Part shown: positions 51,434 through 64,000 of the stretch, one piece after another
Layout: each line of letters starts with the position of its first letter
Numbering within the stretch: position 1 is the stretch's first letter
DNA from: a phage
Length of the DNA stretch: 64,000 nt
Direction: 5' to 3' (one strand)
Assembly (NCBI GenBank): GCA_014686905.1
Contig: GCA_014686905.1_4093.1
Made by a program: the position numbers and the translations under genes
The notes under the pieces: model-generated
The model's input: the letters and a program-made list of their open reading frames with translations, nothing else
Told to the model about the DNA's origin: nothing
Database searches by the model: none

Positions 51434-51677
51434 TATGAAAGTACTGACAGAACTAGAAATGTATCATAGATTTAATAAGTACTATCATTTACTTAAGCCT
51501 ATACAGAGGATTAAATGTCCATTTGAAGAGAAACAGGTTTTAATCTATGAGCACAAGTTCTTTGTATCATTAGGTACAGATCAACAAGAGTACTATTTGA
51601 CGTTGTACTTGATTACATTAATAGATTTAATTCACTATAAAACCAAACAAGCTAATAAAGAGAAATATGAAAACTAA
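51402..51677 (+). CDS. family-2 small paralog
   Basis: Motif LGTDQQEYYL. Confidence 0.55.
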   Translation: MMLQLMEYVFNMKVLTELEMYHRFNKYYHLLKPIQRIKCPFEEKQVLIYEHKFFVSLGTDQQEYYLTLYLITLIDLIHYKTKQANKEKYEN

Positions 51678-52011
51678 TATACAACTCAAGGTATATAAAT
51701 CATTTGAACATACATATATCAAAAGTAGTCTATGTAGAGATGTAATGGATTACAAGGGTAAGCCATTCACAATTACCTATGATTCTTATGTTAGTGATTT
51801 ATATATATCATTTGTTAATTACGAAAATAAAATATACAAGCACGTTGATATTAAAGATTTAAGTACTTTATCACCAGAGGAATACTTTCAGGAATCATTA
51901 GTATGGGATTTAGAGTTTCCTATGCCATTAGTACATAAGATGATAGTACTAATGAAAGAATCTAAACAGGAGCCTAATGGTGATTATGAAGAACACACAG
52001 TTGAGTATTAA
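51667..52011 (+). CDS. family-3 paralog (EEYFQxSLVxD motif)
   Basis: Motif SPEEYFQESLVWDLEFPMPLV. Confidence 0.55.
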   Translation: MKTNIQLKVYKSFEHTYIKSSLCRDVMDYKGKPFTITYDSYVSDLYISFVNYENKIYKHVDIKDLSTLSPEEYFQESLVWDLEFPMPLVHKMIVLMKESKQEPNGDYEEHTVEY

Positions 52012-52381
52012 AAGTACTGATAATACTAAGAGTTATACAAGCTCAAGTACTGTGACAATCGAAGTGAATTCTATTAATGCTGGTAATGCAGTAGATAAGT
52101 TCTTTATTGCTCAAGGGTACAGGAAAGATATTCATCAATATTGTTCAGTATATGGGGAGTACAATAGTACTGAAGATATAATTTATTGGTCAACACATCA
52201 AGATTATATAACTAAAATTGGCGTTCCAGATGTTAGTACTTTATCTGAAGAAGAATACTTTCAGTACAGCTTAGTACATGATGTACCTATACCTTTAGGG
52301 TTAATCAAGGGTATGCAGGAAGAGGTTCATAAGCTTAAATCCATGAGTTCAGGTACTTTCATTAGAACAGTGCAATACTAG
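51977..52381 (+). CDS. family-3 paralog
   Basis: Motif SEEEYFQYSLVHDVPIPLG. Confidence 0.55.
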   Translation: MVIMKNTQLSIKSTDNTKSYTSSSTVTIEVNSINAGNAVDKFFIAQGYRKDIHQYCSVYGEYNSTEDIIYWSTHQDYITKIGVPDVSTLSEEEYFQYSLVHDVPIPLGLIKGMQEEVHKLKSMSSGTFIRTVQY

Positions 52382-52440
52382 CTTGACAGTACTTTTCATT
52401 ACTGATATAGTACACTAACGTTAATCATAGGGTAAAAATT

Positions 52441-52686
52441 ATGTTAAATTTTTTAAATTTCCTTATCGTTTTGTGTATTGTTCTTGGGATTGCACCATTT
52501 GTATTGTATTTCATGGATTCAGATGAAATGCAGAAGATGAATTGCACAAGGACAGGACAGAGTAGAGAAGAGACGATTCTTATGCCTGTTACGGTTATTG
52601 TTAACAACATGCCCATTACAAACATGGTCCCTACCCTAACGACAACGTACCAGTACTCTTGTGCTGACGGTGAGAGGTGGAGATGA
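52441..52686 (+). CDS. small membrane protein
   Basis: N-terminal hydrophobic helix; promoter-like TTGACA...TATAGT at about 52383-52412. Confidence 0.5.
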   Translation: MLNFLNFLIVLCIVLGIAPFVLYFMDSDEMQKMNCTRTGQSREETILMPVTVIVNNMPITNMVPTLTTTYQYSCADGERWR

Positions 52687-53003
52687 AATTTAATATAGCA
52701 AAAACATCGAGTATATGTATTTTTGGTTATGCTGATGAGTTAGGTGATATTGACATTCTTTTGTACAAAAAGGATGGTGTTATGCATTTCAAGTACCAGG
52801 ATGAAGAGGCAGACAATTATCCTTTACCTAATTTAGTACAAATGCAGGAAGATGAATTATTCCAGTACAGCTTAGTATACGACATTGATATTTGCACGAT
52901 GCCAGTACTAATTAGTATTCAAAAAGTGATGCTCGATATGTATGATAAGCTAATACAAGGTACATCAGGGAGAATCATTGAAATCGATATACAAGACAAT
53001 TAA
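52677..53003 (+). CDS. family-3 paralog
   Basis: Motif EDELFQYSLVYDIDICTMPVL. Confidence 0.55.
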   Translation: MEMKFNIAKTSSICIFGYADELGDIDILLYKKDGVMHFKYQDEEADNYPLPNLVQMQEDELFQYSLVYDIDICTMPVLISIQKVMLDMYDKLIQGTSGRIIEIDIQDN

Positions 53004-53196
53004 TCAAGAATGGAAGACCCAAAAGTACAGGGAATTCAACAGGAATTTTACAAAAGATGCATTGAATTTAAAAACAACAGAGTTTGATATGTTTATTTTT
53101 CTTGGAACACGTTCACAAGAACAATTTGTTCATTATTATATAAATTCGTTGCGAACGGAGATAGTATGCAAAACACAGGGTATTATAAAAAGGTAA
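52978..53196 (+). CDS. family-2 small paralog (interleaved with family 3)
   Basis: Motif LGTRSQEQFV. Confidence 0.5.
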   Translation: MKSIYKTINQEWKTQKYREFNRNFTKDALNLKTTEFDMFIFLGTRSQEQFVHYYINSLRTEIVCKTQGIIKR

Positions 53197-53432
53197 ACCA
53201 ATATTTGTACGCTACAAAGTACAGGGATTTTTGTTTAAAGGGTGGTGATGAAGATTTTTCTTTGCGATTATCAGAATTTAATCTGTTATTTTATCTTGGT
53301 ACAAAAGAACAAGAAGAAATGGCACAGAAATTTATCAAGCACCTTTTACAAAAAATTAATATGCAAATTTTGATGCTTAAGTTACAGAATGAGATAAATG
53401 AATATGAATCCAGAAATAGTTCAGGATCTTAA
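53166..53432 (+). CDS. family-2 small paralog (interleaved with family 3)
   Basis: Motif LGTKEQEEMA. Confidence 0.5.
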   Translation: MQNTGYYKKVNQYLYATKYRDFCLKGGDEDFSLRLSEFNLLFYLGTKEQEEMAQKFIKHLLQKINMQILMLKLQNEINEYESRNSSGS

Positions 53433-62119: not shown

Positions 62120-62128
62120 GATTATAAA

Positions 62129-62599
62129 ATGACATTACAGAGTTCATTGGAAAAAGCAAAGAAGATTCATGAGTACATGAATATGGCAAAAGAAGGTTCA
62201 GTTTACGGTGTTTTCAAAGACACAAGTACTCAATATTATGTACCGGATAACCTCCTTTATAATGACTGCTCAGATACAGAAACGTGCATACTAGATACCG
62301 ACCCTAATGATTATGAATGCTTCATTAATATGCATAATGAGTACATGGTCTATATTAATGATACAGATACCATCAACAGTACTGACAGCGATTCCAATGA
62401 CATTATAATTCCGAGTGAAGTACTGGAAGGTCCGTGGGATAGTGAAGAGTATTACTTCCAACAAAGTACTGTATATGATAATGAAGTACTTGATGTTATT
62501 ATAATTATGTGGTACTTTAAAAGTATTGGTTCTGGGAACTTCTATTTCGATTACAAATACGTAAAGAAAACTGTAGATAACGGTATTAACAGGGGTTGA
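62129..62599 (+). CDS. family-3 paralog (subfamily with GPWDSEEYYFQQ)
   Basis: Motif LEGPWDSEEYYFQQSTVYDNEVLDVIIIMWYFKS. Confidence 0.6.
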   Translation: MTLQSSLEKAKKIHEYMNMAKEGSVYGVFKDTSTQYYVPDNLLYNDCSDTETCILDTDPNDYECFINMHNEYMVYINDTDTINSTDSDSNDIIIPSEVLEGPWDSEEYYFQQSTVYDNEVLDVIIIMWYFKSIGSGNFYFDYKYVKKTVDNGINRG

Positions 62600-62600
62600 A

Positions 62601-63071
62601 ATGAGTTTAGAAAGAGCATTAGAGATTGCGAAGTTAATTGATTTATGCAGCAAAGAAATTGTAGCAAATTGTCTTAATGGATATCTATTCAAGGAAGGTA
62701 AATCATATTGTCGAATGAGATACGATGACAGTAGTGAGTACATTCACATGTATGAAGAAAACTTAGATTCTTCTGAAACAACACTCAATGGGTGTGATGT
62801 TAATTTGGAAGATAATTACATGTACTTCTGTCGTGATGCTGATATTTTAATACAAGATTCTGACATTATATCTGGTGCAGCAGAGAAACATCTTCCGTAT
62901 TCAGTACTGGATAATGACTGGGGAAGTGAAGAGTACTACTTCCAGCAGAATACTATCTACGAGGAAGATGTACTTGACAAGCTTGTCATTCTGTGGTACT
63001 TTAATAATACAGATTGTCCTAGCTTCTATTTGGACTTGGATCTACTACGAGTTATTAAAGAGGATATATGA
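62601..63071 (+). CDS. family-3 paralog (GPWDSEEYYFQQ subfamily)
   Basis: Motif DNDWGSEEYYFQQNTIYEEDVLDKLVILWYFNN. Confidence 0.6.
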   Translation: MSLERALEIAKLIDLCSKEIVANCLNGYLFKEGKSYCRMRYDDSSEYIHMYEENLDSSETTLNGCDVNLEDNYMYFCRDADILIQDSDIISGAAEKHLPYSVLDNDWGSEEYYFQQNTIYEEDVLDKLVILWYFNNTDCPSFYLDLDLLRVIKEDI

Positions 63072-63511
63072 GTTTAGCAAGTGCACTTGAACTAGCACAC
63101 AGAATACATCACTTCCACGATAACATAAAAAGTGGGTTCTATGGTGATAAAGTAAGTGCATTTGGTGATGAGTATTATCTATCAGGTATAAAGACATACT
63201 CTGATGATATTTTACTTATGGGACAGGATAAAGACAATACTATACAGTACTCTTCATGTAGTCAATATACTAATTTTTTTGTATATATTCCAGGTACTAA
63301 GATTACTTTTGACACAACAAATACACCTGTTGACTTCGGGGTACTTGATGGCCCGTGGGGTACTGAAGAGTATTACTTCCAACAGAGTCTCATTTTTAAC
63401 CAAGAAATTCTTGATTCCTTGGTTGTGTTGTGGTACTTTAAGGAATTGAATTTTGAACCATTCTTTCTTGACTGGGGAGCATGTGAATATTTAAGTACAG
63501 GGGATTTGTAA
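63068..63511 (+). CDS. family-3 paralog (GPWDSEEYYFQQ subfamily)
   Basis: Motif LDGPWGTEEYYFQQSLIFNQEILDSLVVLWYFKE. Confidence 0.6.
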   Translation: MSLASALELAHRIHHFHDNIKSGFYGDKVSAFGDEYYLSGIKTYSDDILLMGQDKDNTIQYSSCSQYTNFFVYIPGTKITFDTTNTPVDFGVLDGPWGTEEYYFQQSLIFNQEILDSLVVLWYFKELNFEPFFLDWGACEYLSTGDL

Positions 63512-63999
63512 TGTCATTACAAAGTGCATTGAAAGAAGCAAAGAAGATTCATGAGTACATGATTATGGTACAGGAAGGTTCAGTACCAGGTGTATATAAA
63601 ACATCTGATACTGAATTTTTTGTAAAAGACCGTGACGATTATGACGAGTCCGAGATATGTGCAGAAACATTAGTACTGCACACTGATACTGGTGACAGTG
63701 ATAACTGTGAATATCATATGTACAATCAGTACATTAGTTATTGCCGTAATGAAGATATTACCATCTACAACACAGATAGTGATGCTGATGACACTATCAT
63801 TCCTTATTCAGTACTGGAAGGACCGTGGGATAGTGAAGAATATTACTTCCAGAATAGTACGTTGTACAATGAAGAAGAATTAGATGTTATTGTAATTATG
63901 TGGTATTTCAAAAGTATTGACTCCAGTAGTTTCTATTTTGATTATGAATATGTAGAGAATACTGTAGGAGAAGGTAATGTCATTACAAAGTGCTCTTGA
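63511..63999 (+). CDS. family-3 paralog (GPWDSEEYYFQQ subfamily)
   Basis: Motif LEGPWDSEEYYFQNSTLYNEEELDVIVIMWYFKS; close to 62129-62599. Confidence 0.6.
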   Translation: MSLQSALKEAKKIHEYMIMVQEGSVPGVYKTSDTEFFVKDRDDYDESEICAETLVLHTDTGDSDNCEYHMYNQYISYCRNEDITIYNTDSDADDTIIPYSVLEGPWDSEEYYFQNSTLYNEEELDVIVIMWYFKSIDSSSFYFDYEYVENTVGEGNVITKCS

Positions 64000-64000
64000 A
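63977..64000 (+). CDS. start of a further family-3-like gene (3'-truncated by window)
   Basis: ATG after GGAGAAGG; MSLQSALE matches N-termini of the 62129/63511 paralogs. Confidence 0.3.

Follow-up and report, generated by a model that had tools for sequence, protein, structure and literature searches.

What is the long run of small, co-oriented genes that fills the end of a 64,000-nucleotide (nt) stretch of phage DNA (GenBank assembly GCA_014686905.1, contig GCA_014686905.1_4093.1; hereafter the window), and why would a phage keep so many of them side by side? Working from the letters alone, an earlier note had counted about 22 paralogs here, running from position 51667 to the window edge and sharing an EEYFQxSLVxD motif. 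We confirmed that the 12.3-kb block at 51667-63999 is a genuine paralogous family, with 21 complete members of 103-207 amino acids (aa), all on the + strand, one 54-aa N-terminal remnant and the start of one further member cut by the edge. The proteins share what appears from sequence to be a previously undescribed domain, here called the FQ domain, and the family is an ancient, lineage-specific expansion in RaK2-like jumbo phages.

The source phage is an Escherichia coli jumbo phage of about 350 kb, genus Asteriusvirus, and jumbo coliphages of this genus match the block along its full length (98.6% nt identity for phAPEC6 and SHEFM2K, 98.4% for G17, 93% for 121Q and 90% for UE-S1). In these relatives all genes of the block are annotated as 'hypothetical protein' except one spurious 'amidohydrolase 3'. 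The + strand is coding with almost no gaps, adjacent genes abutting or overlapping by 1-35 nt, and the FQ-family genes occupy 76% of the bases of the block.

A family of 21 complete paralogs

The motif is concentrated in the block far beyond chance. A strict pattern, FQx[SAEQN][LTCMA][VILM], occurred in 21 of the 39 + strand open reading frames (ORFs) of at least 45 aa in the block, as against a single one of the remaining 259 six-frame ORFs in the window, and 2,000 residue shuffles of the block ORFs gave a mean of 0.18 hits (maximum 3). Pairwise BLAST connects only part of the members; a profile hidden Markov model (HMM) seeded on seven of them converged on 19. When each subfamily or singleton was left out of the model in turn, all 19 of these first-round members were recovered, ahead of nearly all non-members and over 60-120 residues, so that the motif matches are backed by alignment of the flanking sequence, the point on which the earlier note had said its proposal would fall. 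The search was then iterated on ORFs from three sources (the window, 76 kb of G17 and 50 kb of EJP2), to which reversed sequences were added as decoys; it settled on 97 sequences, and no decoy scored E<1. Exactly 21 genes of the window were among them, all inside 51667-63999. The motif was not a selection criterion in this search, and F-Q nevertheless fell in the same alignment column in 94 of the 97 sequences, with F invariant, and in the aligned helix of all 21 window members.

A basic 220-aa product (isoelectric point (pI) 9.2) encoded far from the block, at 6295-6957 (+), carries SSDLMFQYSLIHKD. Its match to the family HMM was marginal (E 0.008-0.06) and iteration did not recruit it; it may be either a highly diverged outlier or a coincidence.

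Predicted fold and the motif helix

AlphaFold2, run on paralog alignments, was applied to two members that are about 12% identical: the short protein of 61407-61763 (predicted local distance difference test (pLDDT) 86, predicted template modelling score (pTM) 0.81) and the long protein of 63511-63999 (pLDDT 86, pTM 0.83). The structure-prediction check proposed in the earlier note thus gave one architecture for these two distant members, on which the test of a common fold rests: in both models the chain runs from an antiparallel sheet through a short, motif-bearing helix and a longer helix to a closing strand, and the long member has N- and C-terminal helices in addition. As predicted, the FQ domain would comprise a 5-7-stranded antiparallel sheet, the short motif helix as its first helix, the second, longer helix and the closing strand.

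Conservation extends well beyond the motif. Among 99 non-redundant members, Tyr occupies position 37 in 82% (any aromatic residue in 95%), 91% have an aromatic residue at position 47, 92% an aliphatic one at position 57 and 59% Asp at position 59; the alternating aliphatic positions of the strands are likewise kept, as is the hydrophobic pattern of helix 2 and the last strand. The motif had been pictured as a patch on variable scaffolds; since homology spans the whole domain, with a conserved core and with two distant members predicted to fold alike, it is the scaffold that is conserved and everything else that varies, namely all positions outside the core and the optional N- and C-terminal helices.

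The motif helix has the consensus [ST]-E-E-x-[YL]-F-Q-x-S-[LT]-[VIL]-[YHF]-[DN] and coincides with the pLDDT maximum of 96. F is present in 100% and Q in 97% of the 97 paralogs, which are otherwise about 11-20% identical, and E in 71-81% at the helix start. [STD] at -6 followed by E-E-E fits an S/T-x-x-E helix capping box, [DN] at +6 stands where the next helix starts, and F(-1), [LT](+3) and [VIL](+4) lie on one helical face together with Q(0). Because of this capping box and the hydrophobic residues on one face, most of the motif is most simply read as a structural keystone of the predicted fold, in which the capping box and the hydrophobic face would clamp the helix onto the sheet and the Gln would form a polar link with the conserved Tyr residues. 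A shared interaction surface, as proposed in the earlier note, is possible and, on these models, less likely for the motif than the structural role; nonetheless, conserved Tyr, Asp and Glu residues together with the almost invariant Gln could form the lining of a shared functional pocket.

Database searches returned no named relative. All members, the longest ones and a natural fusion included, were scanned against Pfam, NCBIfam and PADLOC. No member had a Pfam match at E<=0.01, the best being noise at E 0.05-0.3; member hits in NCBIfam were far below the curated cutoffs; PADLOC gave no consistent model, as its four matches (E 4e-4 to 2e-2) each paired a different model with just one member; and an HMM search of all PDB sequences gave nothing at E<=10. 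The FQ proteins show neither the SUKH fold (Syd or SMI1-KNR4-like) nor a Pfam SMI1_KNR4/SUKH match of SUKH or immunity-protein-like arrays. Among the closest known systems are generic sheet-plus-helix modules (the RNA polymerase beta-lobe, polo-box, LolA and p32/Mam33). DUF2283 (PF10049), the UniRef label of one member from another assembly (P0046), was rejected as a name for the family: the match covers only 27 residues of the first beta-hairpin, at 13.9 bits against a gathering threshold of 23, and no window member hits it. Window proteins or their orthologs are contained in PHROGs 13866, 15629, 12674, 9317, 19795, 22855, 33987, 34516 and 28680, with cross-hits among these groups; PHROGs thus splits the family into many unlinked groups of 'unknown function', in which its unity, motif and fold are not recorded. 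Nor is the family described in the literature searched (Asteriusvirus, RaK2, CBB, phAPEC6, Sharanji, fEgEco12, PA5oct and the jumbo-phage survey of Iyer et al.); the RaK2 paper notes that about 10% of the proteins of that phage are paralogues, and the CBB paper notes 22 paralogous ORFs.

Spread, age and arrangement of the array

The comparison of copy number across related phages, which the earlier note had recommended, revealed a family larger and older than the window shows. G17 carries at least 44 copies in the approximately 76 kb examined, 39 in one run and five slightly further on, and its array extends about 12 kb past the position that matches the window edge; the divergent Asteriusvirus EJP2 has 32 copies in its first 50 kb. 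Outside the genus, Klebsiella phage RaK2 (genus Alcyoneusvirus) gave about 25 HMM matches with the same signature (for example TEEGYFQYSTIFD), a lower bound as the scan took in 250500-290000 and left out 50001-250000 and 290001-345809, and the RaK2 proteins were independently indicated by Foldseek against BFVD. Xanthomonas phage XaC1, whose RnlA (RNA ligase A) is 49% identical to that of G17, has 5-6 weak but significant members with the motif F-[NSQ] (for example DEDYFFNLSLIYD and DEKFNLSVMY). At the position syntenic to the FQ array, XaC1 has about 26 co-oriented genes of 140-175 aa (locus L010, 17260-30000), among which these 5-6 are HMM-significant; the invariant Gln is there mostly Asn or Ser, and the remaining genes may be members diverged past detection.

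Gene order is conserved as well. In all four lineages the array lies directly upstream of a dam-type methyltransferase, a cytidylyltransferase, RnlA and Pnk; past Pnk, where G17 and RaK2 were examined, both continue with a Ser/Thr phosphatase, DNA ligase, ClpP, dCMP deaminase, Sir2 and NUDIX. By tblastn, Asteriusvirus-type copies were found only in Escherichia and Salmonella jumbo phages and RaK2-type copies only in Klebsiella jumbo phages. An HMM search of 1.84 billion cluster representatives gave 79 clusters, nearly all with the motif, and every match to the profile among 5.8e9 and 1.84e9 proteins was a hypothetical phage protein, the label E. coli or Actinomadura on some of them being due to phage genomes within those assemblies; a broader four-genus profile was too diffuse (16 hits). 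Two proteins labelled 'Actinomadura adrarensis' (P0046 and P0131) are 86-89% identical to window members and sit on contigs of 0.6-1 kb, almost certainly coliphage contamination of that assembly.

The last four complete genes (62129-63999) do form a subfamily, as the earlier note had it, with LEGPW[DG][ST]EEYYFQ...WYF[KN] and a shared N-terminal helix; its further claim that they arose by recent serial duplication does not hold, because identity among them is only 30-57% at the protein level and 63-78% at the DNA level (over the best 142-218 nt), each has its own UE-S1 ortholog (80-96% aa identity) and a one-to-one syntenic counterpart in G17, and the same motif occurs in RaK2 and XaC1. G17 has a fifth member of this subfamily.

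Just one event in the block is recent: a direct repeat of 85 nt (60876-60960 and 61405-61489, 96% identity) flanks the gene at 61036-61407 and leaves the 54-aa remnant ORF at 60875-61039 (+), a duplicated 5' end of the 61407 gene. UE-S1 lacks the 61036-61407 gene, which is therefore read as an inserted cassette, and has two neighbouring paralogs fused into a 243-aa two-domain ORF (L004, 8515-9243), a fusion also seen in other assemblies (P0124). These features together suggest that the array still acquires cassettes by recombination at conserved gene starts, while the bulk of the expansion is ancient; the fusion hints that adjacent copies may act as physical pairs.

UE-S1 retains orthologs of 18 of the 21 window members, and between the two sets of orthologs omega is 0.25 over 2,656 codons (0.31 for the interspersed non-family genes). 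The family is thus under purifying selection, with each copy kept even though the copies have diverged nearly completely outside the core. Judging from the ortholog of 61407-61763, which is 44-57% identical in A4, JNE01 and EJP2 as against 83% for RnlA (G17 versus A4), the long-term divergence of the family seems to be faster than that of this housekeeping neighbour.

Expansions of this kind have counterparts in other viruses. Herpesvirus US22/SUKH, the MGF genes of African swine fever virus and poxvirus ankyrin/PRANC proteins are lineage-specific multigene expansions of large DNA viruses. In a survey of 224 jumbo phages, a zinc-ribbon family of about 35 copies in Bacillus phage G was called unprecedented (Iyer et al. 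2021; PMC7824862). All these families resemble the FQ array in that a small domain is repeated in a giant viral genome as tens of tandem, co-oriented and highly diverged paralogs; the domain is a different one, with no sequence or fold relationship detected, and the FQ copy number (at least 44 in G17) is higher than that of the phage G family. Like all these expansions, the FQ family is kept by selection, is non-structural and presumably acts at the virus-host interface; unlike most of them, it holds the same genomic position in genera that infect Escherichia, Klebsiella and Xanthomonas.

Within the window the array can be followed gene by gene (phAPEC6 names, gp435c-gp466c for the block), and the four motif variants given in the earlier note (SPEEYFQESLVWD, SEEEYFQYSLVHD, DEDELFQYSLVYD and DDAALFQAALVFD) are all present where it had placed them. 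It opens on the + strand with a 114-aa member at 51667-52011 (gp466c; SPEEYFQESLVWD) and a 134-aa member at 51977-52381 (gp465c; SEEEYFQYSLVHD), for which UE-S1 has no close ortholog. A sigma-70-like, TG-extended promoter (TTGACA-17-TATAGT, 52383-52411, +) lies in a 59-nt gap, and further on stands a member of 106-108 aa at 52677-53003 (gp463c; DEDELFQYSLVYD), whose start is annotated at 52683 in relatives. It is followed by members of 182 aa at 54139-54687 (gp460c; DEAGVFQQSLIT), 103 aa at 54677-54988 (gp459c; SDEELFQQQLVID), 188 aa at 54960-55526 (gp458c; SEEEFFQGSMLV; the sole basic member in the block, pI 8.2, again without a close UE-S1 ortholog) and 168 aa at 55833-56339 (gp456c; TDEWWFQQNLVHD). 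The stop of this last gene is overlapped by an intrinsic-terminator-like hairpin and T-run (56327-56348, +), where a terminator is also annotated in G17, and a second sigma-70-like promoter (TTGACA-17-TATCAT, 56365-56393, +) is followed by AAGGAG and the GTG start, at 56422, of a 170-aa member (56422-56934, gp455c; GEDEYFQYSTVH).

The run continues with members of 179 aa at 56931-57470 (gp454c; QEEEYFQMQCIH), 204 aa at 57472-58086 (gp453c; DVDAFMFQLSLVHD), at first borderline and recruited on iteration, 171 aa at 58291-58806 (gp452c; TEESYFQQSLIY), 113 aa at 58803-59144 (gp451c; DEAARFQYETAFD), divergent and likewise recruited on iteration, and 183 aa at 59155-59706 (gp450c; SDESLFQYSTMYD). 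A third promoter of this type (TTGACA-18-AAAAAT, 60316-60345, +) lies in a 197-nt gap before the 125-aa member at 60501-60878 (gp447c; DDAALFQAALVFD). This is the gene annotated as 'amidohydrolase 3' in phAPEC6, a label that we rejected: it is an ordinary FQ member, and neither Pfam nor NCBIfam supports the name. Beyond the remnant stand members of 123 aa at 61036-61407 (gp445c; SEEEFFQESTVWN), 118 aa at 61407-61763 (gp444c; DTAELFQESLVFD) and 119 aa at 61760-62119 (gp443c; DDGELFQAALVFD), then the four of the GPW-EEYYFQ subfamily: 156 aa at 62129-62599 (gp442c), 156 aa at 62601-63071 (gp441c), 147 aa at 63068-63511 (gp440c) and 162 aa at 63511-63999 (gp439c). The expectation that the family runs to the window edge was borne out and exceeded, as 63977-64000 (+) holds the first eight codons (MSLQSALE) of a fifth subfamily member, whose G17 ortholog has 150 aa and the motif GPWDSEEYYFQNSTVYD.

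The surroundings are of note in their own right. A second multigene family, of about 70-90 aa with a C-terminal LGTNxQE-type motif, flanks the FQ array upstream (49917-51677 and 52978-53432, +), with two copies interspersed within the array; in G17 about 30 such genes stand in a row (locus L001, 5655-12011). Further away, the mosaicism of positions 28000-40000 among Asteriusvirus genomes far exceeds that of the FQ block: not a single record reaches 80% coverage, the matches are broken into 2-12 pieces of 85-97% identity, and short pieces are common to the unrelated smaller coliphages W70 and muut. This is probably the real accessory hot spot of this genome arm. The GC skew changes sign at about 6 kb and about 26 kb, delimiting a minus-strand gene block at 6000-26000 that should, by its position, hold the approximately 40-kDa 'DNA condensation protein' paralogs (phAPEC6 virion gp003-gp010).

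Candidate functions of the family

Small acidic early proteins of phages, such as T7 Ocr, T4 Arn, T4 Dmd and Ugi, inhibit host proteins or mimic DNA. The FQ proteins are like them in being small, soluble, acidic and non-virion, in lying among early genes by context and in having the look of stoichiometric binders. Their median pI is 4.8 as against 7.9 for the other window ORFs, with a net charge down to -26, and no transmembrane-like segment was found in any window member. Mass spectrometry of phAPEC6 virions detected 62 proteins, none of them from gp435c-gp466c, although such absence is no proof; the virion table lists no gp between gp347 and gp549 (PMC7247149). Shine-Dalgarno-like sites precede 14 of the 21 starts (background 8.8%), and all three intergenic gaps longer than 50 nt hold a TTGACA sigma-70-like promoter (expected 0.33, P~0.005), one of them directly after the terminator hairpin. 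By analogy only, uncharacterized early gene blocks of the relative PA5oct are driven by TTGAC/TATAAT promoters.

From this context we tentatively propose, as the likeliest of the readings though short of an even chance, that the family consists of soluble, early-made modules that bind host or competitor proteins and serve host takeover or counter-defence. The array would lie in the early-gene arm of RaK2-like jumbo phages; its genes would be transcribed by the host RNA polymerase early in infection, their products would not be built into the virion, and each copy, as a module, would stoichiometrically bind a host (or competitor) protein of its own. The early timing, the binding of targets and any role in counter-defence are all drawn from context.

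Several observations weigh against this proposal. The structures are predicted, and the alignments behind them are shallow (29 and 38 sequences); some members are not acidic, such as that at 54960-55526; early timing rests on consensus promoter matches, whose overall number in the region does not exceed the shuffled expectation; and no domain fusion giving a functional hint was found. Since conservation and synteny within the genus are stronger in the block than in the mosaic 28000-40000 region, a core role in the life cycle fits it at least as well as an arms race, and the retention of a polar Gln with an acidic cluster in more than 100 paralogs could mark a shared functional site.

The shared surface proposed in the earlier note, when spelled out, becomes a docking model, which we consider unlikely: the FQ helix with its acidic cap would dock every paralog onto one common hub, of host or phage origin (for example the downstream ClpP), while the diverged remainder recruits different substrates, as in F-box, SOCS-box and PRANC families. 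The near-invariance of F and Q and the frequent E at the helix start, among proteins so diverged elsewhere, speak for it, as polar invariants often mark function and Tyr37, Tyr47 and Asp59 could join Q in one site; a phage ClpP is encoded in the same gene arm in G17 and RaK2. The motif, however, is flanked by the sheet and helix 2, at the centre of the domain, where the prediction is most confident; its [ST]xxE is a classical helix N-capping box with [DN] at +6 capping the next helix, its F, [LT] and [VIL] share one helical face, and Q gives way to N or S in XaC1.

A role in the phage's own processes rather than in host antagonism is unlikely in our judgement. The paralogs would then be many isoforms of one protein, for instance acidic proteins that chaperone or help to assemble the many basic 'DNA condensation' paralogs of the virion, whose genes lie on the other strand of the window, or organisers of replication or transcription. 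Several such paralogs of about 40 kDa are packaged by phAPEC6 (PMC7247149), the FQ proteins are strongly acidic and under purifying selection, and the array is syntenic, retained across genera and far less mosaic than 28000-40000. The members are absent from virions, although the same would be expected of chaperones; their genes stand among classic non-essential early or counter-defence genes (RnlA, Pnk, dam, Sir2 and NUDIX) and not among morphogenesis genes; and copy sets differ between genomes, with 3 of 21 lacking a UE-S1 ortholog, one inserted cassette and one fusion.

A bolder form of the docking idea is quite improbable: the FQ domain would be a new fold-level family and the largest paralog array in the phage literature searched, forming a modular 'adaptor library' on a common hub (the ClpP protease machinery of the phage or a host complex, for example), with diverged faces that capture dozens of host or defence proteins. 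If true, this would be a phage analogue of the eukaryotic F-box and SOCS-box systems.

It is very improbable that the motif is a processing site for a protease of the tobacco etch virus (TEV) or 3C type (E-x-x-Y-x-Q/S or G) used to cleave the family proteins, and we rejected this possibility. It is suggested by a superficial resemblance to the TEV site, ENLYFQ/S, and by the proteases that the phage encodes (prohead protease and ClpP); the residue after Q (P1') is variable (Y, Q, L, A, E, G, M or N) and Ser stands at +2 instead of +1, the segment is predicted to be helical and in the core where such sites are normally extended and exposed, and no 3C/NIa-like protease was seen among the annotated regions examined. 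T4-type prohead proteases cleave after Glu.

A chance recurrence of the motif or mis-called ORFs, conceivable because DNA of 31-34% GC can give rise to long ORFs and repeated low-complexity peptides, is already refuted by the 21 hits against 0.18 expected, the recovery of left-out groups, the confident common predicted fold, the omega value, the orthologs across genera and the Shine-Dalgarno-like sites.

Jumbo phages of the RaK2/121Q group are under development for therapy, and more than 80% of their genes are unassigned. With at least 44 copies, the FQ family makes up about 6% of the gene complement of a 370-kb genome; it keeps its place in phages of Escherichia, Salmonella, Klebsiella and Xanthomonas and has neither a Pfam model nor a solved relative. 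Recognising many unlinked 'hypothetical proteins' and PHROGs as one domain gives them a single annotation handle, an HMM with the FQ signature, and provides a defined deletion target for host-range or takeover function as well as a structural candidate that is possibly a new fold. The zinc-ribbon expansion of phage G, once called unprecedented, is thus not the upper limit for phage gene families.

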